In this document: positions 4,645 to 55,191 of the stretch, in pieces | How the letters are laid out: the number at the start of each line of letters is the position of its first letter | Numbering within the stretch: position 1 is the stretch's first letter | From: Eledone cirrhosa | Lineage: Eukaryota | NCBI GenBank assembly: GCA_964016885.1 | Contig: OZ024749.1 | Coordinates: 32,922,001-32,986,000 of the forward strand | DNA length: 64,000 bases | Reading direction: 5' to 3' | Notes under the pieces: model-generated | Told to the model about the DNA's origin: nothing | Databases searched by the model: none | The model's input: only the letters and a program-made list of their open reading frames with translations | Position numbers and translations under genes: made by a program

Positions 4645-5052
4645 TCGTCATCATCACCATCACATCCATCACCACTACCATCACCATCACCAGACTAGGA
4701 CCATCACTAGCACCATCATCATTATGACAACCACCACCACCTCTATCATCATTATGACTACTACTACTACTACCACCACCATCATCACTAGGACAACCAT
4801 CACCATCACTGCCACCACTGCTGTTATCATTACGACTACAACCACCACCACCACCACCATCATCATCACTAGGACCACCATGACCATCATTATGACGACA
4901 ATCACCACCATCATCATCTTATTTCAACCATTATCATTACTGCCATCATCACTGCCACTACTATCATCATCATCATCACTACGACCACCATTGCTGTCAC
5001 CATCACCACTACTACCACCATTACCACAACAACCACCACCACCACCACAATA
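4645..5052. repeat. Degenerate CAT/CAC trinucleotide tract
   Basis: Visible low-complexity run. Confidence 0.9.
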
Positions 5053-6549
5053 ACAAATATTCCCTCTCATACCAGTTCATATTGTGTATTTTCTTTCTTA
5101 GTATGGATTACTGCATATACTCAAATATAACCCCAACCCTTAACCGGATCCCTCTCCCCTATTTTATGTCTCAGAAATGGGCAAAAATGCAAACTCTGTT
5201 TATAGGCCAAGGCAGGTAATCAACACGTTTAGAGGGTGCAGTTTTGAAGAAATTCTCATGAATGGAAAATATATTTATAAAGTTTTAATATTTTGATATT
5301 TAAAATGTTTTTTGTGTCATTTAAAGTATAGTTTTTGTTTCACAACTTCATAACATAGTGATTATTTTTTCCCCATTTCATCTGTTTTATAATATTTGAA
5401 CAAGTTTCTCAAATTTTTGTTTACTTCTGACTACTTGAGGAAGATCAAAACTGTGCAAGGGGACATAATAAATAGGGAATAGTTGAAAGAAAGAGATTGA
5501 CTAAGGGAACATTGTATAGGGATTCAGAGCAGATGAGGAAAGGAGAGAGATAGGAGAGGCAGAATGAGAAAAAGAGAGGGTGAGAGAGAGCAAGAACAAT
5601 AAAATACAAGACAGAAGTAAGATTGAAAGGAAAAATATAATTATGTCGCAGAGAAAATCAGTCATCACACGTGTGTGTATGTGTGCGCATGTACGTGCAT
5701 GTATGCATGATCATAGAGTGTGGGTTTGATTCCTGAACTAGGTGACCATTGAGATCTTGAGCAAGATGATTCATTTCATGCTACTTCAGTCCACTCAACT
5801 GAAAAAATGAGTACCAACAGTATCTGGGGGTTAAACCTCTCAATAGACTGGCATCTGGTTCAGTGGTGGTGGTGGAGGTCCTTTTCATGATAAGACCAAG
5901 GTCTTTTTCATTAAAACACCCAAGAACCTTTCTATGAGATGCAACTGTATAGAAGACCAGCTAAACCTACATAGATGTGAGCTGTAATGATATTTCAGTA
6001 CTGGTTATAATGGAAATAGGGTGAAGGGATTTAAGAAACATTCAATGATGTGTTGCAGTTGCTCGAGCTCATGAAAAGTGTAAGTGGTTGAGTATTCTAT
6101 AGACACTTTTAATGCTTTAGCATTTACATTACTTTATATATACTATTATATTTTTGTGATAACGGTGTTACCTCACATACTATCGAATCTATGTGATTTT
6201 GATATTATTTATTTTGAGAACAATACCTTAACATCAGTATGAACAGCTGGTTTGAACAAAAAGAGGTGAGATAATTCTGGCCAGATACGGTCAGTTTAAA
6301 TGCTAATAGGTTATGGTAATTCTTGGAGATTCAAATTGACACTATGTAACTAGGCTGGTCCTTTGAATTGCAGTCCATCCGATGGGCTTCCAAACGTTTT
6401 CTGTCTGCCCAATTTTATTCAAAAGCCATTGGTTGACCCTAGGCTATAGTATCTGACACTTATGGTATGTGCCTTTATATTAACAGCACTAGCAGAAAAA
6501 CCACCCTTTGGGTGATTTTCTGCTAGCATGTGTAGTGTGTATATTGATA

Positions 6550-22689: not shown

Positions 22690-23901
22690 ACATAATTGGA
22701 CTGGGGACCCTATCATTAAAACACCTGAGAAAACTGAGGTACAACCTCGTAGAAGGCCAAGCTAAATCTGTATAGCTGTATCAACATAATTGGACTGGGG
22801 ACCCTATCATTAATATACCTGAGAAACTTCCTATGAGGTATAACCTCAGAAAGTCGGCTAAACCTGTATAGATGTGAGCTGTAACAACATAATTGGACTG
22901 GGGACCCTATCATTAAAATACCTGGGAAACCTATGAGATATAACCTTGTAGAAGGCCAGCTAAACCTGTATAGATGTGAGCTGTAACAACATAATTGGAC
23001 TGGGGACCCTATCATTAAAATACCTGGGAAACCTATGAGATATAACCTTGTAGAAGGCCAGCTAAATCTGTATAGATGTGAGCTGTAACAACATAATTGG
23101 ACTGGGGACCCTATCATTAAAATACCTGGGAAACCTATGAGATATAACCTTGTAGAAGGCCAGCTAAACCTGTATAGATGTGAGCTGTAACAACATAATT
23201 GGACTGGGGACCCTATCATTAAAATACCTGGGAAACCTATGAGATATAACCTTGTAGAAGGCCAGCTAAATCTGTATAGATGTGAGCTGTAACAACATAA
23301 TTGGACTGGGGACCCTATCATTAAAATACCTGGGAAACCTATGAGATATAACCTTGTAGAAGGCCAGCTAAACCTGTATAGATGTGAGCTGTAACAACAT
23401 AATTGAACTGGGGACCCTATCATTAAAATACCTGGGAAACCTATGAGATATAACCTTGTAGAAGGCCAGCTAAATCTGTATAGATGTGAGCTGTAACAAC
23501 ATAATTGGACTGGGGACCCTATCATTAAAATACCTGGGAAACCTATGAGATATAACCTTGTAGAAGGCCAGCTAAATCTGTATAGATGTGAGCTGTAACA
23601 ACATAATTGAACTGGGGACCCTATCATTAAAATACCTGGGAAACCTATGAGATATAACCTTGTAGAAGGCCAGCTAAATCTGTATAGATGAGAGCTGTAA
23701 CAACATAATTGGACTGGGGACCCTATCATTAAAATACCTGGGAAACCTATGAGATATAACCTTGTAGAAGGCCAGCTAAATCTGTATAGATGTGAGCTGT
23801 AACAACATAATTGGACTGGGGACCCTATCATTAAAATACCTGGGAAACCTATGAGATATAACCTTGTAGAAGGCCAGCTAAATCTGTATAGATGTGAGCT
23901 G
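22690..23901. repeat. 102-bp tandem repeat, ~11-12 highly homogeneous copies
   Basis: 34-aa periodicity in ORF 22716-23831. Confidence 0.95.
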
Positions 23902-27021: not shown

Positions 27022-28245
27022 TAACCTCATAGATATTGTGACAACAGACACCTCACAGATATTGTGACAACAGACACCTCACAGATATTGTGACAACAGA
27101 CACCTCACACATATTGTGACAACAGACACCTCACACATATTGTGACAACAGACACCTCACAGATATTGTGACAACAGACACCTCACAGATATTGTGACAA
27201 CAGACACCTCACAGATATTGTGACAACAGACACCTCACAGATATTGTGACAACAGACACCTCACAGATATTGTGACAACAGACACCTCACAGATATTGTG
27301 ACAACAGACACCTCACAGATATTGTGACAACAGACACCTCACAGATATTGTGACAAGACACCTCACAGATATTGTGACAACAGACACCTCACAGATATTG
27401 TGACAACAGACACCTCACACATATTGTGACAACAGACACCTCACACATATTGTGACAACAGACACCTCACACATATTGTGACAACAGACACCTCACACAT
27501 ATTGTGACAACAGACACCTCACACATATTGTGACAACAGACACCTCACAGATATTGTGACAACAGACACCTCATAGATATTGTGACAACAGACACCTCAT
27601 AGATATTGTGACAAGACACCTCACAGATATTGTGACAAGACACCTCACAGATATTGTGACAAGACACCTCACAGATATTGTGACAACAGACACCTCACAG
27701 ATATTGTGACAACAGACACCTCACACATATTGTGACAACAGACACCTCACAGATATTGTGACAACAGACACCTCATAGATATTGTGACAACAGACACCTC
27801 ATAGATATTGTGACAACAGACACCTCATAGATATTGTGACAACAGACACCTCACAGATATTGTGACAACAGACACCTCACAGATATTGTGACAACAGACA
27901 CCTCATAGATATTGTGACAACAGACACCTCATAGATATTGTGACAACAGACACCTCACAGATATTGTGACAACAGACACCTCACAGATATTGTGACAACA
28001 GACACCTCACAGATATTGTGACAACAGACACCTCACACATATTGTGACAACAGACACCTCACACATATTGTGACAACAGACACCTCACACATATTGTGAC
28101 AACAGACACCTCACACATATTGTGACAACAGACACCTCACACATATTGTGACAACAGACACCTCACACATATTGTGACAAAAGACACCTCACAGATATTG
28201 TGACAACAGACACCTCATAGATATTGTGACAACAGACACCTCATA
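27022..28245. repeat. 26-bp minisatellite, ~47 copies
   Basis: Unit CACCTCACAGATATTGTGACAACAGA, with occasional 23-bp variants. Confidence 0.95.
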
Positions 28246-28456: not shown

Positions 28457-28536
28457 AAAATGTTATTAGAAAAACTGCTGACCAATCTGCAGGAACTTGA
28501 TCTCCAGTTAAAGAAAAGGGAAAGATTAATGAAGAG
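28457..28536 (+). CDS. RSF1: RSF1-like exon (KMLLEKLLTNLQELDLQLKKRERLMKR, coiled-coil-like)
   Basis: TAG|...|GTAAAT, phase 0-2. Post-PHD helix as in RSF1. Confidence 0.9.
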
Positions 28537-29307
28537 GTAAATAATTATGCTGTTGTGTGGTGTTTATCTTTCATGTGTTGTGGTTGAATGTTAAATGTTT
28601 TAGTCTCAAATGGTAATTGTGTAGTGTATGTGATGTGTGAGTTTGGTTAACTGTGTAGAATGCGAGTTGTGTTATTTTATTGGGTAATGAGTATACTAAA
28701 GTATTGTTTAAATTGCACGTGTTATTGGTAGTGTTTCTGTATAATATGTGTGAGCTGCGTTGTTATTATTATATTGGGTGATGATTGTGTAAAGTATGTG
28801 TTGTATAGCTTGTGTTATGTTATTGGGTAGTTATTGTTGTGTGGCTTGTTATGTTATTGGGTGGTTATTGTGTTGTGTGGCTTGCGTTATGTTATTGGGT
28901 GGTTATTGTGTAGAGTATGTGTTGTGTGATTATTACTGAATGGTATTCTCTATAGCATGTGTTCAGTGTGTGTTGTTTTATGAGGTAGTTGTATGTGTTG
29001 TATATGGCGGTGAATTGGCAGAGTCGTTAAGACGTCGGATAGAATGCTTATGGTATTCGTTCCAACTCATTGCACGCTCTGAGTTCAAATCCCGCCGAGG
29101 TCAACTTTGCCTTTCATCCTTTTGAGGTCGATAAAAAAGTACCAGTGCAGTACTGGGGTCGATTCTTCCTCTATAAAAAAAATCGGCTGTGTTCAGACCT
29201 GGAGAGGGTTGGGCTCCACCAGGTTTAAAAGTGCCCTAGACACTTTATCAAATTATCTATATATTTCTTTTCATAGTGTAGGGTCTTTTAACTGTTGTTC
29301 TTTTTTT

Positions 29308-29352
<45 letters not shown>

Positions 29353-29449
29353 AAATGAAGTAATTCCGTCGGAAAAGTCCAGGAAAAAAGAGTGCTCTAT
29401 GTAGGTAACAGAGCTTAATAGTTATGTAATAAACAACATAAGGCAATTA

Positions 29450-29509
29450 TTCCATTTACCAGTGGTTTCTTAAAAGCAAAAAATTTTGCTTTCAATCATC
29501 AGAATGAAA
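29450..29509 (-). ncRNA. Type I minimal hammerhead ribozyme motif
   Basis: Minus strand reads TTTCATT-CTGATGA-[TTGAAAGCAA..TTGCTTTTAA stem II]-GAAA-CC-ACT-GG-TA-AATGGAA. Stem I pairs over 7 bp (one G-U) and the cleavage triplet is GUA. Confidence 0.7.
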
Positions 29510-29610
29510 AAATCCTGGTCTGTTTATTGATATTGGATTTTAAAAACAAAAATGCAAATGGAATGCATTTTTGTTTTTAAAATCCAATATCAATAAACAG
29601 ACCAGGATTT

Positions 29611-29670
29611 TTTCATTCTGATGATTGAAAGCAAAATTTTTTGCTTTTAAGAAACCACTGGTATATGGAA
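29611..29670 (+). ncRNA. Second hammerhead copy in the opposite palindrome arm (one stem I mismatch)
   Basis: CTGATGA at 29618-29624 and GAAACCACTGGTA at 29651-29663. The first stem I pair is U-U. Confidence 0.55.
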
Positions 29671-29695
29671 TAATTGCCTTATGTTGTTTATTACA

Positions 29696-29727
<32 letters not shown>

Positions 29728-29729
<2 letters not shown>

Positions 29730-30001
29730 AGCAAATTATAAATGTAAACATGTAAGTATGTTTTTTGAAACGGTGCGCGAGTTTGAAAATTAGAAATTAT
29801 AAGCTTTCACCGTATTTTAGACTAAAGAAATTTCTAGCCTCATAGTGGGGTTTATAACCCTCGGAGAAAATGGAAAAAGATGAATGTTGCCGTACGGCAA
29901 CACTCATCTTTTTCCATTTTCTCCGAGGGTTATAAACCCCACTATGAGGCAGGCTAGAAATTTCTTTAGTCTAAAATACGGTGAAAGCTTATAATTTCTA
30001 A

Positions 30002-30007
<6 letters not shown>
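29728..30007. repeat. Second foldback palindrome (~107-bp arms) inside (TA)n
   Basis: Centre TGTTGCCGT|ACGGCAACA at 29893/29894, with a 4-nt insertion in the right arm. Confidence 0.9.
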
Positions 30008-30040
<33 letters not shown>

Positions 30041-30079
30041 ATCAAATTGACCTTTTTTTCATATATTTGTCCGTTGCAG

Positions 30080-30128
30080 AAAGGAAAGGCTGGCTTTTGT
30101 TGGTATTAGCTTGGATAATATTTTGTCT
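30080..30128 (+). CDS. RSF1: RSF1-like 49-nt exon (KERLAFVGISLDNILS)
   Basis: CAG|...|GTAAGT, phase 2-0. Matches the RSF1 KERLxxVGISxxNI motif. Confidence 0.92.
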
Positions 30129-36255: not shown

Positions 36256-36812
36256 TTTTTTAACACTACCCCCCCCCCCCTCGTCTTGTTCTATATAAAT
36301 AGTTATGTTGTTTTTCAACGCCCTTCACCCTTTCTACACACAAACAAGCCTCAAATATTTTATGATAGTCACCAGTTCATTCAAGAGGAAATAAATACTG
36401 TGTCTTTACCTACACATCTGTGTGTGTGTATGTTTACACACATATAACACATACACTACGCAAAAACAAATGTAAACACCCTTGTCCACTTTCACGTTCA
36501 CATGCACATAAATATGCACATTTACACACATGCTTATATATACATCCCATATATATATACACTCATATATATGCTAGCAGGGAAAACGGACGTTAAACGA
36601 TGATGATGATAATGATGTGTATATATATATACATATATACATCGTCTGCTCATTCATGCAATACACTAGACACTTGATTCAAGTATACATACGCCCTAGT
36701 AAGTATTATCTTTTAAATATATATATATATAGATATATATCACAGACGGAAGAAAGAGTACTCAATACTGGCGTTAGAATTTAAATTATATACAGGAATA
36801 AATGTGTGTGTC

Positions 36813-36857
<45 letters not shown>

Positions 36858-37670
36858 TTATTGTTCATTTTTTGGGATATTTCTTTGATTATATTTTATT
36901 TTTGTTGCCCTCTCAAAAAATCTGAAATGAAGAAGTAGGGAGGGGGTTCTTTTTTGTTTCTTTTTTGATAGGTAAAATTGTTGTTACAGCTCACACCTAA
37001 GTTTGTAGCTTTAGCTGGCCTCGTAAGGGGTTTCTCAGCTGCTTCAATGATAGGTACCGCTGCAGTGTTGTTATTACAGCTCACTCACACCTATGTATGT
37101 ATGTAAGTTTAGCTGGCCTCCAATGGGGTTTCTCGAGTATTTTCATGGGGGCCTCATTGTTATTACAGCTCACACCTATGTAGGTTTAACTGCCCTTACA
37201 GCTCACATCTATGTAGGTTTAGCTGGCCCCCTATGGCGGTTTCTCGGGTGTTTTCATGATAAGGGCCTCAGCATTATTACAGCTCCCATCTATGTAGGTG
37301 TAGCTGGCCTCCTATGGGGGTTTCTCAGGTGTTTTCATGATAAGGGCCTCAGCATTATTACAGCACACACTTATGTAGGTTAAACTAGCCTTCTATGGTG
37401 TTTCAATGATAGGGACCATCCAATACTATCACAATAAAACTGTGTATAAAGTGGATAGCAACAAACCTTTTTAGTAATGTTGTATTTATATCTGTATACT
37501 CGTAGTTAGTAGCCTGTTTATATAAATATATATATATGTGTGTGTGTGGGGGATGTACTGGTGCACTGGTGCCTATTCAGAGAATAAAGTTTATACTCTA
37601 CCTGCAAGTATTGAGTGTTAATTCCGTTAATGCTTGAATGTTTCAAGTGTTGTATTTTAAACACCCATTC

Positions 37671-37728
<58 letters not shown>

Positions 37729-38021
37729 CATACACAAACTTCACACACACAATAGTGTTACAGGTAACACAAGATCTCCATTATGTGACATGTTGGAGAT
37801 ACCTTTTCCCTGTGATATATATGTATCTACACTGTAAATGTGGTTGGTGTTAGGAAGGGCATCCAGCTGTAGAAAACCCGCCAGACAGTCCTATGCGAGC
37901 AAGACAACCACTCTTGCCTCAAGTGGGAAAACTCCCATCCAAACCCATGCAAGCGTGGAACATGGACGTTAAACGATGATGATGATGATATATATATATA
38001 TATATATATGGTTATGAGTGT

Positions 38022-38320
38022 GCATGGCTTAGTGATTAGGGTATTCAGCTCATGATCGTAAGGTTGTAAGTTCGATTCCTCATAGTGCATTGTGTCCTTG
38101 AGCAACACACTTTATTTCACATTGCTCCAGTCCACTTGGCTAACAAAAATGAATTATACTTGGAATTCGAAGGGCTAGCCTTCGAATTACATGTCATGCT
38201 GAATCTTTCTTAGAACTATGTTAACGGTACGCATGTCTGTGGAATGCTCAGCCACTTGCACGTTAAGTTCTGTAGATCGTATCAACTGCAACACTCTTCG
38301 TAACTGATGAAGTGCCCAAA
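38022..38320 (+). mobile_element. tRNA-derived SINE family 2 with CORE-like central domain
   Basis: TGGCTTAGTGATTAG (A box), GTTCGATTCC (B box), then TGTGTCCTTGAGCAACACACTT resembling the CORE-SINE domain. Copies at about 5705-5860, 22505-22600, 44200-44360(-) and in the duplicate. Confidence 0.65.
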
Positions 38321-38999
38321 GAAAAGATATATATATGTATATAATATATATATATATATATGTTATATACATATAACTGCATTTTTGCATTCCTGTGTTT
38401 GTTTTGTTTCTTTATTAACTATATGTATACATTAGTTTTCCAAACTGTGCTGTATAGCAATGACCTAATTCTCCACCCTAGTAACAATGACCTAATTCCC
38501 CACCCTAATAACAATAACCTAATTCTCCACCCTAATAACAATAACCTAATTTACCTTTTCTATCATCATCATCATCATCGTCATCATCATCTTTGATTTT
38601 AAAAAAAAATTCCTTTCCCTCCCACTGTCATTAGTGACTCTTGCATTTCCCCATAAATCAATCCCTGTGTCAGGTATGTGTGGTGGTGTTGGTGGTGGTG
38701 GCAGTGTTGGTAGTTGTGGTGGTGGAATTTAACCCTTTTAGCAACTCGATAATCAACAAAAATCACTTGTTATATCACTGCCCAAGATTGCTTCAAGTTT
38801 CATGATATATCATAAATTTTCAAATGCTTGTCCCCCATCACTGTTTAACATCAATTTTCCATACCTGCATTGGTTAAATGGTTGTAATATGAGGCTACAC
38901 AGGTCAGGGGATCACTTTGCATTTCTATGGCTGGATGCAGTGTACTGGGAACATTTTTCATGCCACCAGCACCAACCATCCGCCAGTCGTGATACCACC

Positions 39000-39400
39000 T
39001 CCAACTTGGCTGCGCATGGGATTCCTCCAAAGCGCCTTTCCAGTAACGTTACTTGATAAAGTATGTAACTCGGAAATCAGAGAGTCACTCCAGGTAGAAC
39101 CGCTACTTCTCGGAATTGAGAGATCACAGCTCCGATACTATGAGCATGTGGTTAGAATGTTTCAGGAAAGAATCGTTGGACAAATTTCACGGCCAAAACC
39201 AACCAGCAAGAGACCCAGGGGTATACATACCTCAAGCAAGATGGTTGGATAACATCCATGAGCTTGGCTGGTCACACTTGGGAATCCAGCTGGATCACTT
39301 GGAGATGGTTGCTTCTGACAGGACCTGCTGGAAGGAATGTTTTAGGACTTGGCCCCCACGACCCTCTCAGGAATAAGTGGGCGAAGATGAAGACGACACG
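39000..39400 (+). mobile_element. RTE-like LINE 3' fragment (duplicated at ~48045-48445)
   Basis: IERSQLRYYEHVVRM..RPRG. Homologous to 30200-30590 in the opposite orientation. Confidence 0.75.
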
Positions 39401-39870
39401 ACCAGCACTAACTACTTTACAGGGGTAGAATAACAACAGCAATAACCTCCTCATTGTTAGACCAATATTTGTAGAGACAGAATAACTTAGTAGATAATGT
39501 AAATCCACTCTGATAGGATGAAAGGTAAAGTTGGATTCAGTATGATTTGAACTCAGAATCCAGAGAACTGGAATGAAGGTTGCAAAACATTCTATCCAAC
39601 ACTCTAACAACTCTGCTATTTCTTTACCCCCAACCCTGATCATCTGTATCTAGTGAAAGCAAGGAACTCTTGTTTAATAGAGACAAACTTTTAGCTGTAC
39701 AAACTAGCTATACACTATAGCTACCCACGGGCTGTCTCAACTCAGTATAATATAAACTTATATAGCAGTTTCTTGGGTGTCTTCATCTCCCTCCTTCTCT
39801 TGCTGTCTCTCTCTCTCTCTCTCCCTGCTAGCAAGTATCTACAACTAATCCAGAAAATAGTTTAACTCTG

Positions 39871-39903
<33 letters not shown>

Positions 39904-39996
39904 TTACTAATACTACTACTGCTGCTAACACCACCACCACCACCACCACCACAACTACTGCTACCTCCTGATGATTTGTCAGTATGTGGTGTGTAC

Positions 39997-40470
<474 letters not shown>

Positions 40471-40516
40471 AACGTAAGATGTGGGAAAATAATTCAAACT
40501 CAATTCAAATATATAT

Positions 40517-40556
<40 letters not shown>

Positions 40557-40581
40557 TAGCAACATGACCCTCCCAAAGTAT

Positions 40582-40639
<58 letters not shown>

Positions 40640-40739
40640 TTATATGTATATGTGTATATTTATATGTATATGTATATATGTATATATATATATATATATA
40701 CATATATGTATATATATATACATATATATATATGTATAT

Positions 40740-40778
<39 letters not shown>

Positions 40779-41522
40779 TGTATATATATATACATATATA
40801 TATATGTATATTTATATGTATATATATATATGTATATATATATATGTATATATATATATGTATATATATATATATGTATATATGTGTATATATATATGTA
40901 TATATATGTATATGTATATATATGTATATATATATATATGTATATATGTGTATATATATATGTATATATGTGTATATATATATATATGTATATATATGTA
41001 TATATATAAATGTATATATATGTGTATATGTATATATATATATATGTATATGTATATATGTAAATGTATATGTATATATATATATATGTATGTATGTATA
41101 TATATATATGTATGTATATATATGTATATATATATTCCTGGCTGACAGACAGGTCTAGTCTGGCCTATTTACAAGCCCCCACCCTCCCACTACCCTGTCT
41201 TTCCCCATCCTCCCTCCCTCCCTTCCTTGTTATTGTATATTACTAGCTAATATAACCTCCTTTACAGTCTACAGAGGAAAGTGTGGAAACTGGCCTGTCT
41301 GAATGGGCCTACTTTGACTGTGTTTCTAAGAAAGAAGAAAATGAAACTGGGAAAGGGTTCTTTAAATGTCTTTGGTATTCTGGGACTGTGTGTAGGTTTT
41401 TTTTATCCCACCCAACCCACCCTTCCCCGAATTCTATGATTTTCAAATAATTTTGAAAAATAATTAAGAATTTGAAGATATTTAGTAAAATAGTTAACTG
41501 ACATTATTAAGCTAATGTTTTT

Positions 41523-43915
41523 GTAGTAGTAGTGGGGTGTATCTCTGTCCCAGACCTCTAACATTCTGTGGTATAGGTAGTAGTAGTGGGGTGTATCTCT
41601 GTCTCAGACCTCAAACATTCAGTGGTATAGGTAGTAGTAGCGGGGTGTATCTCTGTCCTAGACCTCAAACATTCAGTGGTATAGGTAGTAGTAGTGGGGT
41701 GTATCTCTGTCTCAGACCTCAAACATTCAGTGGTATAGGTAGTAGTAGTGGGGTGTATCTCTGTCTCAGACCTCAAACATTCAGTGGTATAGGTAGTAGT
41801 AGCGGGGTGTATCTCTGTCCTAGACCTCAAACATTCAGTGGTATAGGTAGTAGTAGTGAGGTGTATCTCTGTCCCAGACCTCTAACATTCTGTGGTATAG
41901 GTAGTAGTAGTGAGGTGTATCTCTGTCCCAGACCTCTAACATTCTGTGGTATAGGTAGTAGTAGTGGGGTGTATCTCTGTCCCAGACCTCAAACATTCTG
42001 TGGTATAGGTAGTAGTAGCGGGGTGTATCTCTGTCCCAGACCTCTAACATTCTGTGGTATAGGTAGTAGTAGTGGGGTGTATCTCTGTCCCAGACCTCTA
42101 ACATTCTGTGGTATAGGTAGTAGTAGTGGGGTGTATCTCTGTCCCAGACCTCTAACATTCTGTGGTATAGGTAGTAGTAGTGAGGTGTATCTCTGTCTCA
42201 GACCTCAAACATTCAGTGGTATAGGTAGTAGTAGTGGGGTGTATCTCTGTCCCAGACCTCTAACATTCAGTGGTATAGGTAGTAGTAATGGGGTGTATCT
42301 CTGTCCCAGACCTCTAACATTCTGTGGTATAGGTAGTAGTAGTGGGGTGTATCTCTGTCCCAGACCTCTAACATTCTGTGGTATAGGTAGTAGTAGTGAG
42401 GTGTATCTCTGTCTCAGACCTCAAACATTCAGTGGTATAGGTAGTAGTAGTGAGGTGTATCTCTGTCCCAGACCTCTAACATTCAGTGGTATAGGTAGTA
42501 GTAGTGAGGTGTATCTCTGTCTCAGACCTCAAACATTCTGTGGTATAGGTAGTAGTAGTGAGGTGTATCTCTGTCTCAGACCTCAAACATTCAGTGGTAT
42601 AGGTAGTAGTAGTGGGGTGTATCTCTGTCCCAGACCTCAAACATTCTGTGGTATAGGTAGTAGTAGTGGGGTGTATCTCTGTCCCAGACCTCAAACATTC
42701 TGTGGTATAGGTAGTAGTAGTGGGGTGTATCTCTGTCCCAGACCTCAAACATTCTGTGGTATAGGTAGTAGTAGTGGGGTGTATCTCTGTCCCAGACCTC
42801 AAACATTCAGTGGTATAGGTAGTAGTAGTGGGGTGTATCTCTGTCCCAGACCTCAAACATTCTGTGGTATAGGTAGTAGTAGTGGGGTGTATCTCTGTCC
42901 CAGACCTCAAACATTCTGTGGTATAGGTAGTAGTAGTGGGGTGTATCTCTGTCCCAGACCTCAAACATTCAGTGGTATATGTAGTAGTAGTGGGGTGTAT
43001 CTCTGTCCCAGACCTCAAACATTCAGTGGTATAGGTAGTAGTAGTGGGGTGTATCTCTGTCCCAGACCTCTAATATTCTGTGGTATAGGTAGTAGTAGTG
43101 AGGTGTATCTCTGTCTCAGACCTCAAACACCCAGTGGTATAGGTAGTAGTAGTGAGGTGTATCTCTGTCCCAGACCTCAAACATTCAGTGGTATAGGTAG
43201 TAGTAGTGGGGTGTATCTCTGTCCCAGACCTCTAATATTCTGTGGTATAGGTAGTAGTAGTGGGGTGTATCTCTGTCCCAGACCTCTAACATTCTGTGGT
43301 ATAGGTAGTAGTAGTGGGGTGTATCTCTGTCCTAGACCTCTAACATTCTGTGGTATAGGTAGTAGTAGTGGGGTGTATCTCTGTCTCAGACCTCAAACAT
43401 TCTGTGGTATAGGTAGTAGTAGTGGGGTGTATCTCTGTCTCAGACCTCAAACACCCAGTGGTATAGGTAGTAGTAGTGAGGTGTATCTCTGTCCCAGACC
43501 TCAAACATTCAGTGGTATAGGTAGTAGTAGTGGGGTGTATCTCTGTCCCAGACCTCTAATATTCTGTGGTATAGGTAGTAGTAGTGGGGTGTATCTCTGT
43601 CCCAGACCTCTAACATTCTGTGGTATAGGTAGTAGTAGTGGGGTGTATCTCTGTCCTAGACCTCTAACATTCTGTGGTATAGGTAGTAGTAGTGGGGTGT
43701 ATCTCTGTCTCAGACCTCAAACACCCAGTGGTATAGGTAGTAGTAGTGAGGTGTATCTCTGTCCCAGACCTCAAACATTCAGTGGTATAGGTAGTAGTAG
43801 TGGGGTGTATCTCTGTCCCAGACCTCTAACATTCTGTGGTATAGGTAGTAGTAGTGGGGTGTATCTCTGTCCTAGACCTCTAACATTCTGTGGTATAGGT
43901 AGTAGTAGTGAGGTG
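41523..43915. repeat. 54-bp minisatellite, ~44 copies (duplication copy A)
   Basis: Unit GGTATAGGTAGTAGTAGTGGGGTGTATCTCTGTCCCAGACCTCTAACATTCTGT. Confidence 0.97.
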
Positions 43916-45482
43916 TGTTGGAAGATGTCAACTTTACCTTTCATCCTTCCATCTGAATTTGGTAAAACTTTATACAAGAAACAATCATCATCATCATCAT
44001 CACACGTCCGTTCTTCCATGCTAGCATGGGTTAGACGGTTACGTCCGCTTTTTCCCTGCTTGCAAGGGTGGGACGGGAACTGATTCTGGCTTGATTTCTA
44101 CAGCTGGATACCCTTCCTAACACCAACCTCATTTACAGTGAGTGCTGGGTGCTTTTATGCCGTGGCACCTCTACGACCACTTTGCAGTGGAATGATAGGG
44201 ACCCCAGTCCTATCATCTCATTTCTACAGCTGAGTAAACTGGAGCAATGTGAAATAAAGTGTCTTGCTCAAGGACACAACACATCACCCGGTCTGAGAAT
44301 TGAACTCACAACCTTTCGATTGCAAGACCAATGCTCTAACCACTAAGCTATGTGCCTCCATATCAATACACAGATACATAGAGGGAATGTGACACAAACA
44401 TATATATGTACACATACGTGCACACACACACACACACATTGATACAGACTGGAGCATGCATCCAGAAACTATGCTGTGACACAGACACATACAAATCCAG
44501 ATACACACACACAAACCCAGACAAACACACAAACACACAAACACACACACACCCAGACAAACACACACACACACACAAACTCAGACAAACACACACAAAC
44601 CCATACAAACACACACACACAAACCCAGATAAACACACACATACAAATCCAGACAAACACACTCATACACACATTTAATCAGTTTGTGTTTGTTAGTTGT
44701 CCTATCAGTTCAATCAGCCTAACTATTATATATACCTAATTATTTAAAACATCATAATTAACACAGTAACTAATTAATTCAGTATATGAAAGCAATTAGT
44801 GATTTTGTCAAATATTGGTCTTATAACTATGTGTGTTTGTTAGGCAATGAAGGTCACCAGTTTTATTTCTTTTTCACATGTCATAACCCTTTCCATAGTG
44901 AGAGATGAGGAGAGTGGGAGAAACGGGGGTAGTGACAGTGGCAGTTTGGTTCTTTTGTGTTCTAGACCTGGTGTATATATGTGTATATACACTCCACCAC
45001 TCACCCCCTACTCCATCCTTCCACCTCCGTCCACTGTAAAGTGTGGTAAAAAAGCACCCAGTTCACACTGTAAAGTGGTTGTGTAGGTAAAAAAAAAAGT
45101 GGGAAGTCCACACTGCAAATATGGTTGGTGTTAGGAAGGGCATCCAGCCATAGGAAACATGCCAGAAACAGATCTGTACGAGTGAGACACGGTCTCCCGA
45201 CCAATCTTGCCTCAAGTGGGACAAAACTGTCCAACCCATGCTAGCGTGGAAGACGGACTTTTAAGATATGTTCCAAACACCAGATAAATAAGAAGAAAGT
45301 TAGTTATACTACTCTCTCCCTTCCAAATTCTTAATTGTTTCAAAAATTATTTTAAAATCTTTTATTAAAAATATGGTGGTAATAACAGGGTGAACAGAGG
45401 AATCACTGACCAACAGCATCATTGTTGTCATTTTTATGTCTACTTTGCCTTATTGGCATGGAATGGGAAAGGTATTTTTTTT

Positions 45483-45697
45483 TTAACTCTTTAGCATTTA
45501 CATTATTCTATATATACTATTATATTTTCATAGTAAAGGCTTTACCTCACATAATATCGAATCTATGAGATTCTGAAAGTATTTATTTTGAGAACAATAC
45601 CTTAACATCAGTATGAATGGCCAGTTACAGCCAGTTTCAACAGAAAGAGGTAGAGAATTCTGGCCGGTTTTGGCCGGTTTGATCATTAAAGGGTTAA
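45483..45697 (+). mobile_element. piggyBac-type MITE family A copy (duplicated at 54791-55005)
   Basis: TTAA-flanked, part of the 9-kb duplication. Confidence 0.8.
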
Positions 45698-45821
45698 TGC
45701 AGAATTCTACAACCAGATACCCTTACCGCTTCTTTCTGTCCTTAAGGATATTTACCCTATTTACTAAACCTATTTTCATTTATACCGATTTTGTGTTTGA
45801 ATTCCAATGTTTATGTATGTA

Positions 45822-45896
<75 letters not shown>

Positions 45897-46709
45897 TTAT
45901 TGTTCATTTTTTGGGATATTTCTTTGATTATATTTTATTTTTGTTGCCCTCTCAAAAAATCTGAAATGAAGAAGTAGGGAGGGGGTTCTTTTTTGTTTCT
46001 TTTTTGATAGGTAAAATTGTTGTTACAGCTCACACCTAAGTTTGTAGCTTTAGCTGGCCTCGTAAGGGGTTTCTCAGCTGCTTCAATGATAGGTACCGCT
46101 GCAGTGTTGTTATTACAGCTCACTCACACCTATGTATGTATGTAAGTTTAGCTGGCCTCCAATGGGGTTTCTCGAGTATTTTCATGGGGGCCTCATTGTT
46201 ATTACAGCTCACACCTATGTAGGTTTAACTGCCCTTACAGCTCACATCTATGTAGGTTTAGCTGGCCCCCTATGGCGGTTTCTCGGGTGTTTTCATGATA
46301 AGGGCCTCAGCATTATTACAGCTCCCATCTATGTAGGTGTAGCTGGCCTCCTATGGGGGTTTCTCAGGTGTTTTCATGATAAGGGCCTCAGCATTATTAC
46401 AGCACACACTTATGTAGGTTAAACTAGCCTTCTATGGTGTTTCAATGATAGGGACCATCCAATACTATCACAATAAAACTGTGTATAAAGTGGATAGCAA
46501 CAAACCTTTTTAGTAATGTTGTATTTATATCTGTATACTCGTAGTTAGTAGCCTGTTTATATAAATATATATATATGTGTGTGTGTGGGGGATGTACTGG
46601 TGCACTGGTGCCTATTCAGAGAATAAAGTTTATACTCTACCTGCAAGTATTGAGTGTTAATTCCGTTAATGCTTGAATGTTTCAAGTGTTGTATTTTAAA
46701 CACCCATTC

Positions 46710-46769
<60 letters not shown>

Positions 46770-49047
46770 CATACACAAACTTCACACACACAATAGTGTT
46801 ACAGGTAACACAAGATCTCCATTATGTGACATGTTGGAGATACCTTTTCCCTGTGATATATATGTATCTACACTGTAAATGTGGTTGGTGTTAGGAAGGG
46901 CATCCAGCTGTAGAAAACCCGCCAGACAGTCCTATGCGAGCAAGACAACCACTCTTGCCTCAAGTGGGAAAACTCCCATCCAAACCCATGCAAGCGTGGA
47001 ACATGGACGTTAAACGATGATGATGATGATATATATATATATATATATATGGTTATGAGTGTGCATGGCTTAGTGATTAGGGTATTCAGCTCATGATCGT
47101 AAGGTTGTAAGTTCGATTCCTCATAGTGCATTGTGTCCTTGAGCAACACACTTTATTTCACATTGCTCCAGTCCACTTGGCTAACAAAAATGAATTATAC
47201 TTGGAATTCGAAGGGCTAGCCTTCGAATTACATGTCATGCTGAATCTTTCTTAGAACTATGTTAACGGTACGCATGTCTGTGGAATGCTCAGCCACTTGC
47301 ACGTTAAGTTCTGTAGATCGTATCAACTGCAACACTCTTCGTAACTGATGAAGTGCCCAAAGAAAAGATATATATATGTATATAATATATATATATATAT
47401 ATGTTATATGCATATAACTGCATTTTTGCATTCCTGTGTTTGTTTTGTTTCTTTATTAACTATATGTATACATTAGTTTTCCAAACTGTGCTGTATAGCA
47501 ATGACCTAATTCTCCACCCTAGTAACAATGACCTAATTCCCCACCCTAATAACAATAACCTAATTCTCCACCCTAATAACAATAACCTAATTTACCTTTT
47601 CTATCATCATCATCATCGTCATCATCATCTTTGATTTTAAAAAAAAATTCCTTTCCCTCCCACTGTCATTAGTGACTCTTGCATTTCCCCATAAATCAAT
47701 CCCTGTGTCAGGTATGTGTGGTGGTGTTGGTGTTGGTGGTGGTGGCAGTGTTGGTAGTTGTGGTGGTGGAATTTAACCCTTTTAGCAACTCGATAATCAA
47801 CAAAAATCACTTGTTATATCACTGCCCAAGATTGCTTCAAGTTTCATGATATATCATAAATTTTCAAATGCTTGTCCCTCATCACTGTTTAACATCAATT
47901 TTCCATACCTGCATTGGTTAAATGGTTGTAATATGAGGCTACACAGGTCAGGGGATCACTTTGCATTTCTATGGCTGGATGCAGTGTACTGGGAACATTT
48001 TTCATGCCACCAGCACCAACCATCCGCCAGTCGTGATACCACCTCCAACTTGGCTGCGCATGGGATTCCTCCAAAGCGCCTTTCCAGTAACGTTACTTGA
48101 TAAAGTATGTAACTCGGAAATCAGAGAGTCACTCCAGGTAGAACCGCTACTTCTCGGAATTGAGAGATCACAGCTCCGATACTATGAGCATGTGGTTAGA
48201 ATGTTTCAGGAAAGAATCGTTGGACAAATTTCACGGCCAAAACCAACCAGCAAGAGACCCAGGGGTATACATACCTCAAGCAAGATGGTTGGATAACATC
48301 CATGAGCTTGGCTGGTCACACTTGGGAATCCAGCTGGATCACTTGGAGATGGTTGCTTCTGACAGGACCTGCTGGAAGGAATGTTTTAGGACTTGGCCCC
48401 CACGACCCTCCTTCTCAGGAATAAGTGGGCGAAGATGAAGACGACGACCAGCACTAACTACTTTACAGGGGTAGAATAACAACAGCAATAACCTCCTCAT
48501 TGTTAGACCAATATTTGTAGAGACAGAATAACTTAGTAGATAATGTAAATCCACTCTGATAGGATGAAAGGTAAAGTTGGATTCAGTATGATTTGAACTC
48601 AGAATCCAGAGAACTGGAATGAAGGTTGCAAAACATTCTATCCAACACTCTAACAACTCTGCTATTTCTTTACCCCCAACCCTGATCATCTGTATCTAGT
48701 GAAAGCAAGGAACTCTTGTTTAATAGAGACAAACTTTTAGCTGTACAAACTAGCTATACACTATAGCTACCCACGGGCTGTCTCAACTCAGTATAATATA
48801 AACTTATATAGCAGTTTCTTGGGTGTCTTCATCTCCCTCCTTCTCTTGCTGTCTCTCTCTCTCTCTCTCTCCCTGCTAGCAAGTATCTACAACTAATCCA
48901 GAAAATAGTTTAACTCTGCTGCTACTACTACTACTACTACTACTACTACTATTACTAATACTACTACTGCTGCTAACACCACCACCACCACCACCACCAC
49001 CACAACTACTGCTACCTCCTGATGATTTGTCAGTATGTGGTGTGTAC

Positions 49048-49164
<117 letters not shown>

Positions 49165-49256
49165 TATATACTATTTTTCCATTTTGACGCTATAGTCACT
49201 TATATATTATGGAATACTGTTGGCTTCTTGCTACAATAATTTCTATACTTTTTATT

Positions 49257-49328
<72 letters not shown>

Positions 49329-49457
49329 ATAATATAGAAATTATTGTAGCAAGAAGCCAACAGTATTACATAATATATAAGTGACTATAGCGTCAAAATG
49401 GAAAAATAGTTAACGTAAGATGTGGGAAAATAATTCAAACTCAATTCAAATATATAT

Positions 49458-49491
<34 letters not shown>

Positions 49492-49518
49492 ATTAGCAAC
49501 ATGACCCTCCCAAAGTAT

Positions 49519-49588
<70 letters not shown>

Positions 49589-49700
49589 GTATATATATAT
49601 ATATGTATATTTATATGTATATGTATATATGTGTATATATATATGTATATATATATATATACATATATGTATATATATATACATATATATATATGTATAT

Positions 49701-49739
<39 letters not shown>

Positions 49740-50565
49740 TGTATATATATATACATATATATATATGTATATTTATATGTATATATATATATGTATATAT
49801 ATATGTATATATGTGTATATATATATGTATATATGTGTATATATATATGTATATATGTGTATATATATATGTATATATATGTATATATATATGTATGTAT
49901 ATATATATGTATATATATATATATATGTATATATGTGTATATATATATGTATATATATGTATATATATATATATATATGTATATATATGTATATATATAA
50001 ATGTATATATATGTGTATATGTATATATATATATATATATGTATATGTATATATGTAAATGTATATGTATATATATATATATGTATGTATATATATATAT
50101 ATGTATGTATATATATGTATATATATATATATGTATGTATATATATATATATGTATGTATATATATGTATATATATATTCCTGGCTGACAGACAGGTCTA
50201 GTCTGGCCTATTTACAAGCCCCCACCCTCCCACTACCCTGTCTTTCCCCATCCTCCCTCCCTCCCTTCCTTGTTATTGTATATTACTAGCTAATATAACC
50301 TCCTTTACAGTCTACAGAGGAAAGTGTGGAAACTGGCCTGTCTGAATGGGCCTACTTTGACTGTGTTTCTAAGAAAGAAGAAAATGAAACTGGGAAAGGG
50401 TTCTTTAAATGTCTTTGGTATTCTGGGACTGTGTGTAGGTTTTTTTTATCCCACCCAACCCACCCTTCCCCGAATTCTATGATTTTCAAATAATTTTGAA
50501 AAATAATTAAGAATTTGAAGATATTTAGTAAAATAGTTAACTGACATTATTAAGCTAATGTTTTT

Positions 50566-53228
50566 GTAGTAGTAGTGGGGTGTATCTCTGTCCCAGACCT
50601 CTAACATTCAGTGGTATAGGTAGTAGTAGTGGGGTGTATCTCTGTCCCAGACCTCTAACATTCTGTGGTATAGGTAGTAGTAGTGGGGTGTATCTCTGTC
50701 CCAGACCTCTAATATTCTGTGGTATAGGTAGTAGTAGTGGGGTGTATCTCTGTCCCAGACCTCTAACATTCAGTGGTATAGGTAGTAGTAGTGAGGTGTA
50801 TCTCTGTCCCAGACCTCTAACATTCAGTGGTATAGGTAGTAGTAGTGGGGTGTATCTCTGTCCCAGACCTCTAATATTCTGTGGTATAGGTAGTAGTAGT
50901 GAGGTGTATCTCTGTCCCAGACCTCAAACACCCAGTAGTATAGGTAGTAGTAGCGGGGTGTATCTCTGTCTCAGACCTCAAACATTCAGTGGTATAGGTA
51001 GTAGTAGTGGGGTGTATCTCTGTCCCAGACCTCAAACATTCTGTGGTATAGGTAGTAGTAGTGGGGTGTATCTCTGTCCTAGACCTCTAACATTCTGTGG
51101 TATAGGTAGTAGTAGTGAGGTGTATCTCTGTCCCGGACCTCTAACATTCTGTGGTATAGGTAGTAGTAGTGGGGTGTATCTCTGTCCTAGACCTCTAACA
51201 TTCTGTGGTATAGGTAGTAGTAGTGGGGTGTATCTCTGTCCTAGACCTCTAACATTCAGTGGTATAGGTAGTAGTAGTGGGGTGTATCTCTGTCCCAGAC
51301 CTCTAACATTCAGTGGTATAGGTAGTAGTAGTGAGGTGTATCTCTGTCCCAGACCTCTAACATTCAGTGGTATAGGTAGTAGTAGTGGGGTGTATCTCTG
51401 TCCTAGACCTCTAACATTCAGTGGTATAGGTAGTAGTAGTGAGGTGTATCTCTGTCCCAGACCTCTAACATTCAGTGGTATAGGTAGTAGTAGTGAGGTG
51501 TATCTCTGTCCCAGACCTCTAACATTCAGTGGTATAGGTAGTAGTAGTGAGGTGTATCTCTGTCTCAGACCTCTAACATTCAGTGGTATAGGTAGTAGTA
51601 GTGAGGTGTATCGCTGTCCTAGACCTCTAACATTCTGTGGTATAGGTAGTAGTAGTGGGGTGTATCTCTGTCCCAGACCTCAAACATTCAGTGGTATGGG
51701 TAGTAGTAGTGAGGTGTATCTCTGTCCCAGACCTCTAACATTCAGTGGTATAGGTAGTAGTAGTGAGGTGTATCTCTGTCCCAGACCTCAAACATTCAGT
51801 GGTATAGGTAGTAGTAGTGAGGTGTATCTCTGTCCCAGACCTCTAACATTCAGTGGTATAGGTAGTAGTAGTGGGGTGTATCTCTGTCCCAGACCTCAAA
51901 CATTCTGTGGTATAGGTAGTAGTAGTGAGGTGTATCTCTGTCCCAGACCTCTAACATTCTGTGGTATAGGTAGTAGTAGTGAGGTGTATCTCTGTCCCAG
52001 ACCTCTAATATTCTGTGGTATAGGTAGTAGTAGTGGGGTGTATCTCTGTCCCAGACCTCTAATATTCTGTGGTATAGGTAGTAGTAGTGGGGTGTATCTC
52101 TGTCCCAGACCTCAAACATTCTGTGGTATAGGTAGTAGTAGTGAGGTGTATCTCTGTCCCAGACCTCTAACATTCTGTGGTATAGGTAGTAGTAGTGAGG
52201 TGTATCTCTGTCCCAGACCTCTAATATTCTGTGGTATAGGTAGTAGTAGTGGGGTGTATCTCTGTCCCAGACCTCTAATATTCTGTGGTATAGGTAGTAG
52301 TAGTGGGGTGTATCTCTGTCCCAGACCTCTAATATTCTGTGGTATAGGTAGTAGTAGTGGGGTGTATCTCTGTCCCAGACCTCAAACATTCAGTGGTATA
52401 GGTAGTAGTAGTGAGGTGTATCTCTGTCCCAGACCTCTAACATTCTGTGGTATAGGTAGTAGTAGTGAGGTGTATCTCTGTCCCAGACCTCTAACATTCT
52501 GTGGTATAGGTAGTAGTAGTGAGGTGTATCTCTGTCCCAGACCTCTAACATTCAGTGGTATAGGTAGTAGTAGTGAGGTGTATCTCTGTCCCAGACCTCT
52601 AACATTCTGTGGTATAGGTAGTAGTAGTGGGGTGTATCTCTGTCCCAGACCTCAAACATTCAGTGGTATAGGTAGTAGTAGTGAGGTGTATCTCTGTCCC
52701 AGACCTCTAACATTCAGTGGTATAGGTAGTAGTAGTGAGGTGTATCTCTGTCCCAGACCTCTAACATTCAGTGGTATAGGTAGTAGTAGTGAGGTGTATC
52801 TCTGTCTCAGACCTCTAATATTCTGTGGTATAGGTAGTAGTAGTGGGGTGTATCTCTGTCCCAGACCTCTAACATTCAGTGGTATAGGTAGTAGTAGTGG
52901 GGTGTATCTCTGTCCCAGACCTCTAATATTCTGTGGTATGGGTAGTAGTAGCGGGGTGTATCTCTGTCCCAGACCTCTAACATTCAGTGGTATAGGTAGT
53001 AGTAGTGAGGTGTATCTCTGTCCCAGACCTCTAACATTCTGTGGTATAGGTAGTAGTAGTGGGGTGTATCTCTGTCCCAGACCTCTAACATTCTGTGGTA
53101 TAGGTAGTAGTAATGCGGTGTATCTCTGTCCCAGACCTCAAACATTCAGTGGTATAGGTAGTAGTAGTGGGGTGTATCTCTGTCCCAGACCTCTAACATT
53201 CTGTGGTATAGGTAGTAGTAGTGAGGTG
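50566..53228. repeat. 54-bp minisatellite, ~49 copies (duplication copy B)
   Basis: Same unit, different variant order. Confidence 0.97.
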
Positions 53229-55129
53229 TGTTGGAAGATGTCAACTTTACCTTTCATCCTTCCATCTGAATTTGGTAAAACTTTATACAAGAAACAATCA
53301 TCATCATCATCATCACACGTCCGTTCTTCCATGCTAGCATGGGTTAGACGGTTACGTCCGCTTTTTCCCTGCTTGCAAGGGTGGGACGGGAACTGATTCT
53401 GGCTTGATTTCTACAGCTGGATACCCTTCCTAACACCAACCTCATTTACAGTGAGTGCTGGGTGCTTTTATGCCGTGGCACCTCTACGACCACTTTGCAG
53501 TGGAATATGGACCCCAGTCCTATCATCTCATTTCTACAGCTGAGTAAACTGGAGCAATGTGAAATAAAGTGTCTTGCTCAAGGAAACAACACATCACCCG
53601 GTCTGAGAATTGAACTCACAACCTTTCGATTGCAAGACCAATGCTCTAACTACTAAGCTATGTGCCTCCATATCAATACACAGATACATAGAGGGAATGT
53701 GACACAAACATATATATGTACACATACGTGCACACACACACATTGATACAGACTGGAGCATGCATCCAGAAACTATGCTGTGACACAGACACATACAAAT
53801 CCAGATACACACACACAAACCCAGACAAACACACAAACACACAAACACACACACACCCAGACAAACACACACACACACACACACAAACTCAGACAAACAC
53901 ACACAAACCCATACAAACACACACACACAAACCCAGATAAACACACACATACAAATCCAGACAAACACACACATACACACATTTAATCAGTTTGTGTTTG
54001 TTAGTTGTCCTATCAGTTCAATCAGCCTAACTATTATATATACCTAATTATTTAAAACATCATAATTAACACAGTAACTAATTAATTCAGTATATGAAAG
54101 CAATTAGTGATTTTGTCAAATATTGGTCTTATAACTATGTGTGTTTGTTAGGCAATGAAGGTCACCAGTTTTATTTCTTTTTCACATGTCATAACCCTTT
54201 CCATAGTGAGAGATGAGGAGAGTGGGAGAAACGGGGGTAGTGACAGTGGCAGTTTGGTTCTTTTGTGTTCTAGACCTGGTGTATATATGTGTATATACAC
54301 TCCACCACTCACCCCCTACTCCATCCTTCCACCTCCGTCCACTGTAAAGTGTGGTCAAAAAGCACCCAGTTCACACTGTAAAGTGGTTGTGTAGGTAAAA
54401 AAAAAAGTGGGAAGTCCACACTGCAAATATGGTTGGTGTTAGGAAGGGCATCCAGCCATAGGAAACATGCCAGAAACAGTTCTGTACGAGTGAGACACGG
54501 TCTCCCGACCAATCTTGCCTCAAGTGGGACAAAACTGTCCAACCCATGCTAGCGTGGAAGACGGACTTTTAAGATATGTTCCAAACACCAGATAAATAAG
54601 AAGAAAGTTAGTTATACTACTCTCTCCCTTCCAAATTCTTAATTGTTTCAAAAATTATTTTAAAATCTTTTATTAAAAATATGGTGGTAATAACAGGGTG
54701 AACAGAGGAATCACTGACCAACAGCATCATTGTTGTCATTTTTATGTCTACTTTGCCTTATTGGCATGGAATGGGAAAGGTATTTTTTTTTTAACCCTTT
54801 AGCATTTACATTATTCTATATATACTATTATATTTTCATAGTAAAGGCTTTACCTCACATAATATCGAATCTATGAGATTCTGAAAGTATTTATTTTGAG
54901 AACAATACCTTAACATCAGTATGAATGGCCAGTTACAGCCAGTTTCAACAGAAAGAGGTAGAGAATTCTGGCCGGTTTTGGCCGGTTTGATCATTAAAGG
55001 GTTAATGCAGAATTCTACAACCAGATACCCTTACCGCTTCTTTCTGTCCTTAAGGATATTTACCCTATTTACTAAACCTATTTTCATTTATACCGATTTT
55101 GTGTTTGAATTCCAATGTTTATGTATGTA

Positions 55130-55191
<62 letters not shown>

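Follow-up and report, generated by a model that had tools for sequence, protein, structure and literature searches.

A foldback with a hammerhead motif in each arm in an intron of Eledone cirrhosa, and its parent Penelope-like family

The foldback locus and its host intron

The window, by which we mean the whole stretch of 64,000 nucleotides analysed here (Eledone cirrhosa, assembly GCA_964016885.1, contig OZ024749.1, positions 32,922,001 to 32,986,000 of the forward strand), includes a plus-strand gene with a PHD exon. A 1,543-nt intron of this gene, bounded by exons of 80 nt and 49 nt that read in frame after the PHD exon, harbors an inverted repeat set between (TA)n tracts (Table 1). Its arms of 139 nt each are 99% complementary, with 1 mismatch, and are separated by a 7-nt spacer; the predicted RNA fold reaches -239.1 kcal/mol (z -32.8), which none of 100 shuffles equalled. 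An earlier reading by a model, made from the letters without database searches (the sequence-only reading), had described a 139-bp near-perfect inverted repeat within (TA)n, extended by about 65 nt on the left only and lying about 400 nt upstream of the 49-nt exon. The arm coordinates, fold energy and flanking tracts agree with this description, the extension measures 66 nt, and the 3' boundary of the element lies 377 nt from the acceptor of the exon. The same reading called the host gene RSF1, which is its likely name: the PHD exon match fits, an Atlas lead is weak (score 0.84 at rank 4), and sequence searches for gene identity with one host exon found nothing.

Table 1. Features of the foldback locus, in positions of the window
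Feature	Positions	Strand	Remarks
Host intron, phase 2, RSF1-like PHD gene	28537..30079	+	Exons 28457-28536 and 30080-30128 on either side; gene name tentative
(TA)n target tract, left	29312..29348	.	
Tail of the Penelope-like element (PLE), 66 nt	29352..29417	-	Identical to the stretch between 5' pLTR and start codon in full-length elements
Left arm, 5'-truncated pLTR 3' end	29418..29556	-	Element-sense on the minus strand
Hammerhead, left arm, family-typical sequence	29451..29508	-	Stem I 6 bp, core 29502-29496, stem II 11 bp, palindromic stem III
Spacer, 7 nt, inversion junction	29557..29563	.	
Right arm, inverted 5'-truncated pLTR copy	29564..29702	+	Stops at the short end, without tail
Hammerhead, right arm, host-transcript sense	29612..29669	+	A17 at 29663; private change at 29664
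(TA)n target tract, right	29700..29727	.	Common to a second, unrelated foldback insertion

Several other repeats occur in the window. A second foldback (29728-30004) has the same layout, with a left-only extension (29728-29786), two arms (29787-29893 and 29894-30004) and (TA)n flanks. Its family (L061-L079), unrelated to that of the first foldback and likewise young, gave 1,462 first-look candidates at 94-98% identity. The family's unit, about 285 nt long, is repeated head to tail, and part of it resembles a tRNA (22.8 bits and E 0.025 with the Rfam tRNA model, below gathering). A ribozyme scan of this second foldback found none, and a PLE may have moved it as a non-autonomous element with a tRNA head. 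Long intronic minisatellite arrays lie at 22700-23850 and 27024-28150, the latter with a 26-nt period, and the stretch at 29050-29165 presumably resembles a tRNA-derived SINE. The pieces of a roughly 9-kb intronic tandem duplication (about 36800-45900 and 45860-55190), including an array with a 54-nt period, are 94-99% identical; the duplication is either real or an assembly duplication.

The hammerhead motifs of the two arms

The hammerhead core is present on both strands, with C3 at 29618 and A17 at 29663 on the plus strand, and C3 at 29502 and A17 at 29457, within a GUA cleavage triplet, on the minus strand. The features of a type I hammerhead are all there (core C3-A9, G12-A15.1, U16.1, H17 and three helices), the plus copy being mismatched at 1.1-2.1. 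A loose core pattern matches six times within the window against a shuffle mean of 2.18, a count that 3 of 100 shuffles reach and that is not significant. A full descriptor, which demands the core, stems I and II of at least 4 bp each, a stem III pair and H17, finds only the two arm sites across the 64 kb, the plus site only with the 1.1-2.1 mismatch allowed, and just 1 of 200 Markov controls gave any match. The claim of a hammerhead in each arm is thus borne out by core and descriptor. An Rfam search of the region and of a single arm returned no hammerhead family up to E 10.

Three peculiarities had been listed as caveats. The G10.1-C11.1 pair is indeed absent and replaced by U-A, but this is not a defect, because by our own count 19 of the 26 Hydra-clade rows in File S2 of Craig et al. 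(2021; PMC8557442) lack G-C at the first stem II pair. The supposed 3-bp stem III is more aptly described as a palindrome of 9 nt around a single central nucleotide, and this palindrome forms 8 bp in the cofolded dimer. The U-U in stem I of the plus copy is real and private to this copy (1 of 74 examined); it is the lone difference between the arms and adjoins the cut site of the host-sense copy.

The parent Penelope-like family

We searched the 3.0-Gb, AT-rich genome with the arm and obtained 1,417 first-look candidates, with 43 matches scored at 95-100%. A 32-nt pattern comprising stem III and its 3' flank has at least 3,918 exact matches in the genome, and its reversed control has 0. The window copy is 98-99% identical to the best other copies, which marks it as a young insertion. 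At longer loci an RT-endonuclease (RT-EN) frame has the arm on either side, each time in sense orientation, and in full-length elements the arm immediately precedes the 5' UTR and recurs after the ORF. One such locus (L054) carries an open frame of 711 codons (2945-5080) between hammerhead-bearing repeats, and its translation shows RWK, DKT, a CxCX5C linker, CxxC, and CxH near the C-terminus. The window copy is truncated and has no RT-EN frame of its own; like most retrieved loci, it ends in (TA)n. The search of the genome proposed in the sequence-only reading therefore found the expected linkage of the arm to PLE frames, the PLE origin stands, and the "ORF-less PLE remnant" can be specified as a 5'-truncated stub of a family with full-length RT-EN copies.

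Pfam gave no significant family for the protein of the element. A search for its homologues yielded 1,292 proteins, the best 120 of them at 41-57% identity and nearly all unnamed. The Hydra clade of PLEs has been described with the RWK, DKT, CxCX5C, CxxC and CxH motifs, (TA)n targets and hammerheads (Craig et al., 2021; PMC8557442). By these motifs and by-eye likeness to the File S1 sequences, rather than by a reference tree, the family is assigned to this clade, and it is a separate, new family within a known PLE clade. Other PLE-type frame fragments lie beside or nested with it in (TA)n (L030, L045, L059, L068, L035, L009 and L023), some of them Hydra-like at about 70% DNA identity, and the hammerheads of other repeat families (L012, L079, L031, L034 and L051) have a 6-nt palindromic stem III and a stem II of 4-5 bp.

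Two 3' ends and the frequency of foldbacks

The tail stretch was found in 70 distinct copies, 15 of which continue into the 5' UTR; 54 of the other 55 end within 14 nt of one point. Copies without the tail stop at the short end, giving the family two preferred 3' ends. Judged by its sequence, the left-only extension of the window foldback is such a PLE tail. Inverted pairs less than 700 nt apart make up 21 rows at 20 loci (one locus accounts for two rows), with the tail in one arm only in 18 rows, in neither in 2 and in both in 1. Among the first 100 matches listed (68 loci on one contig), 14 divergent, head-to-head pairs no more than 600 nt apart stand against 1 convergent, tail-to-tail pair; extrapolated from 14 per 100 matches, there would be roughly 550 such foldbacks genome-wide. 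The insertion habit known for PLEs, an inverted partial pLTR, thus recurs here at 14 of the 68 sampled loci, and the short foldback is a routine insertion product of the family.

A pile-up of element 5' ends at the hammerhead cut site was weak (42 copies against 25 in the neighbouring control window, p 0.05), in a comparison that is confounded by TA microhomology. In a single case, the window foldback itself, the spacer has the same letters as the first 7 nt 3' of the cut site; this may be chance or templated filler, as if a cleaved fragment had been reverse-transcribed right up to its 5' end.

Ribozyme conservation and predicted folding

Common variants of the family were taken from contigs of public runs, in which 16 differences were listed, 7 of them inside the 58-nt ribozyme. 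All 7 either lie at N7, in loop II or in the pair that closes it, or change G-U to a Watson-Crick pair in stems I and II, and none affects the core, the palindrome or H17. The nominal p value for this placement is 1e-6, or 4.5e-4 with the loop excluded, for classes fixed after viewing the data, variants shared by descent and a loop II that is a mutable homopolymer. The 74 assembled terminal copies, many picked for their likeness to the window, likewise vary most at N7 and loop II and have no core variant in three or more copies; single-copy core mutations do exist (9 substitutions over 11 core columns in the 74 copies). Compensatory changes among these copies and the common variants are one-sided and compatible, and none that were two-sided were seen. 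Because the common variants avoid the core and leave the stems paired, the ribozyme was probably under selection in the active lineage, and its motif is probably a genuine hammerhead in the parent element.

The minimum-energy structure of two cofolded copies is a double hammerhead (-34.8 kcal/mol, against -25.8 for two monomers), and in the parent element the ribozyme likely works as a dimer. Within the window foldback, the pair probability of stems I and II is near 0, and forcing the hammerhead costs 79.0 kcal/mol on the plus strand and 77.5 on the minus strand. Both hammerheads at the locus are thus predicted to be held off by the hairpin, the lock that the sequence-only reading had suggested. 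Given the head-to-head layout, the antisense arm comes first whichever strand is transcribed, and the ribozyme arm would zip onto it as it emerges. The host-sense copy additionally lacks a dimer partner and is mismatched beside its cut site.

A second, internal hammerhead in one subfamily

Many elements (e.g., L036, L045, L048, L054 and L055) hold a second hammerhead, here called B, in the 3' UTR. It lies 240-420 nt past the stop codon, and its distance from the terminal copy, A, is mostly 1.1-1.4 kb. With G at position 17, B is a feature of the youngest subfamily. Position 17 is A in all 74 copies of A. In B it is G, making a GUG site, in 16 of the 19 copies found without seeding (L042, L046 and L049, of terminal type, left out) and in all 26 further copies, which were retrieved by a G17 query; by our own count, 15 of the first 100 pattern matches listed have G17. 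TA-rich sequence marks both boundaries of B, and other subfamilies have nothing but (TA)n at that site; this suggests that B arose by self-insertion. In a tree of 33 ORF ends, rooted at the midpoint on a long outgroup branch whose outgroup label is spurious, all 16 rows with a G17 B fall in one clade (100/98), together with L059, L042 (without B) and L027. L037, whose B still has A17, adjoins this clade, and elements without B branch deeper. The single hammerhead of L059 looks like a B-A recombinant. L045 and L055 share a G variant at N7 in both the internal and the terminal copy, which hints at conversion or template switching between copies.

PMC3884650 reports that a G at position 17 is strongly damaging to minimal hammerheads and makes stabilised ones 8- to 100-fold slower. 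In a cofold of B with A, the A site is open, and the B site is closed by a C3-G17 pair. Only four fixed differences separate B from A, too few to show constraint on the B core. In the plain reading, B is a passenger that was disarmed either by drift or because cuts in the template were selected against. We think it rather unlikely that the youngest subfamily has captured its own hammerhead and turned it, core and palindrome intact, into a cleavage-resistant helper that pairs in cis with A, an asymmetric double hammerhead cut only at A, an arrangement that would free the element from the need for a tandem partner or protein help. Searched by title and the start of the abstract, with most subscription papers and bioRxiv supplements outside the scope, the literature yielded neither an internal G17 nor a self-inserted PLE hammerhead.

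Origin of the locus and alternative explanations

We are highly confident that the locus is the truncated 3' end of a multi-copy PLE inserted in (TA)n, made of a tail-bearing copy and an inverted tail-less copy, in which a hairpin is predicted to block both hammerheads and which is likely a passive scar. By analogy with PAc Poseidon (Frangieh et al., 2024; PMC11167929), the protein of the element would nick AT-rich DNA, and reverse transcription would begin at two internal RNA sites whose spacing makes the tail. At this locus, one cDNA would have started from each site, both halting after about 140-200 nt before being joined head to head.

The alternative with the most to recommend it, though in our judgment an improbable one, is that the insertion affects its host gene. 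Either the 139-bp duplex would undergo editing or change how the 49-nt exon is spliced, or selection would have favored the lock and the stem I change as protection of the pre-mRNA against cleavage. The insertion does lie 377 nt from an acceptor, the one difference between the arms sits beside the host-sense cut site and is private (1 of 74), and Xenopus retrozymes are depleted in introns according to a 2026 preprint (10.64898/2026.07.22.740005). The same preprint, however, leaves 42-44% of those retrozymes intronic, the host-sense hammerhead is a lone copy without a dimer partner, and by our own estimate one mutation would hit one of about 20 critical sites among 278 with a chance of roughly 7%. 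Selection is not needed, because the insertion is young (98-99%) and its architecture routine. The intronic hairpin is likely an ordinary insertion scar, not a gene switch.

Palindromes can be sequencing artefacts, and no contig from three public runs spans the whole stretch, two of those runs coming from one study and possibly from the assembly's own material. A chimeric foldback of the assembly is nonetheless very improbable, given arms with distinct family-specific ends, a one-base difference between them and an intervening spacer, the same polarity at many loci, and flanking exons in order. Least credible of all is a MITE-like foldback DNA element or a miRNA-type hairpin with an incidental likeness to a hammerhead. 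The long perfect inverted repeat in TA would suit it, and Rfam plant miRNA models do score, all far below gathering; against it, most copies are not foldbacks, arm length differs between loci and variants respect the ribozyme, and the link of the sequence to an RT-EN frame refutes it.

As a PLE scar, one of roughly 550 foldbacks by extrapolation, the locus itself is of little consequence, but its family is of more use: it is young, includes a copy whose frame is open, and is placed by motifs in a PLE clade that has been little studied, and its thousands of copies preserve both RT start sites. What hammerheads do for PLEs has been described as unclear, and the paired GUA and GUG copies lend themselves to testing whether cleavage depends on dimers. 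Near-perfect hairpins in the hundreds would also supply dsRNA in sizeable amounts wherever they lie in transcripts.

Comparison with known systems

Metazoan non-LTR retrozymes are likewise short, non-coding and PLE-related and carry type I hammerheads, but as described they are head-to-tail tandem units, whereas the locus here derives from an autonomous family, its copies truncated and joined head to head (PMC7229834; 10.64898/2026.07.22.740005). We considered a non-LTR retrozyme for this locus, and the inverted arrangement of its hammerhead copies rules it out.

PAc Poseidon shares with our family an AT-rich target, a pLTR hammerhead and a tail set by two internal RT start sites. It belongs to a different clade, however, and its hammerhead overlaps the start codon, whereas ours lies about 200 nt upstream; in vitro, its ribozyme required the protein, and insertion did not depend on the ribozyme (Frangieh et al., 2024; PMC11167929). 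The minimal PLE hammerheads reported by Cervera and de la Pena (2014; PMC4209133) are of type I, with a long helix II, a short palindromic helix III and dimer dependence, as here. That report stresses a conserved G10.1-C11.1 pair, which is absent here, and its elements have highly variable copies, whereas our family is very uniform.

The closest likeness is to the Hydra clade (Craig et al., 2021; PMC8557442), which has the same motifs in a protein of about 710 residues with RT and C-terminal endonuclease, (TA)n targets and a sense hammerhead near the 3' end. Several features set the present family apart from what is described there: stem II, at 11 bp, is longer than in any Hydra row of File S2; the tail is about 66 nt rather than 30-40 nt; and the 3' UTR is long and microsatellite-rich, with a second, G17 hammerhead in one subfamily, G17 occurring in 0 of the 26 Hydra rows of File S2. 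Hydra-1_Obim, the nearest element seen, has the same 4-bp palindrome arms in stem III and differs by eye in its protein and in stems I and II (PMC8557442). The dual arrangement itself has precedents: hammerheads 100-700 bp apart on opposite strands were already reported in Schistosoma in 2014 (PMC4209133), and Penelope-13_HM is likewise listed with hammerheads on both strands and a 5'-truncated copy in inverted orientation (PMC8557442).
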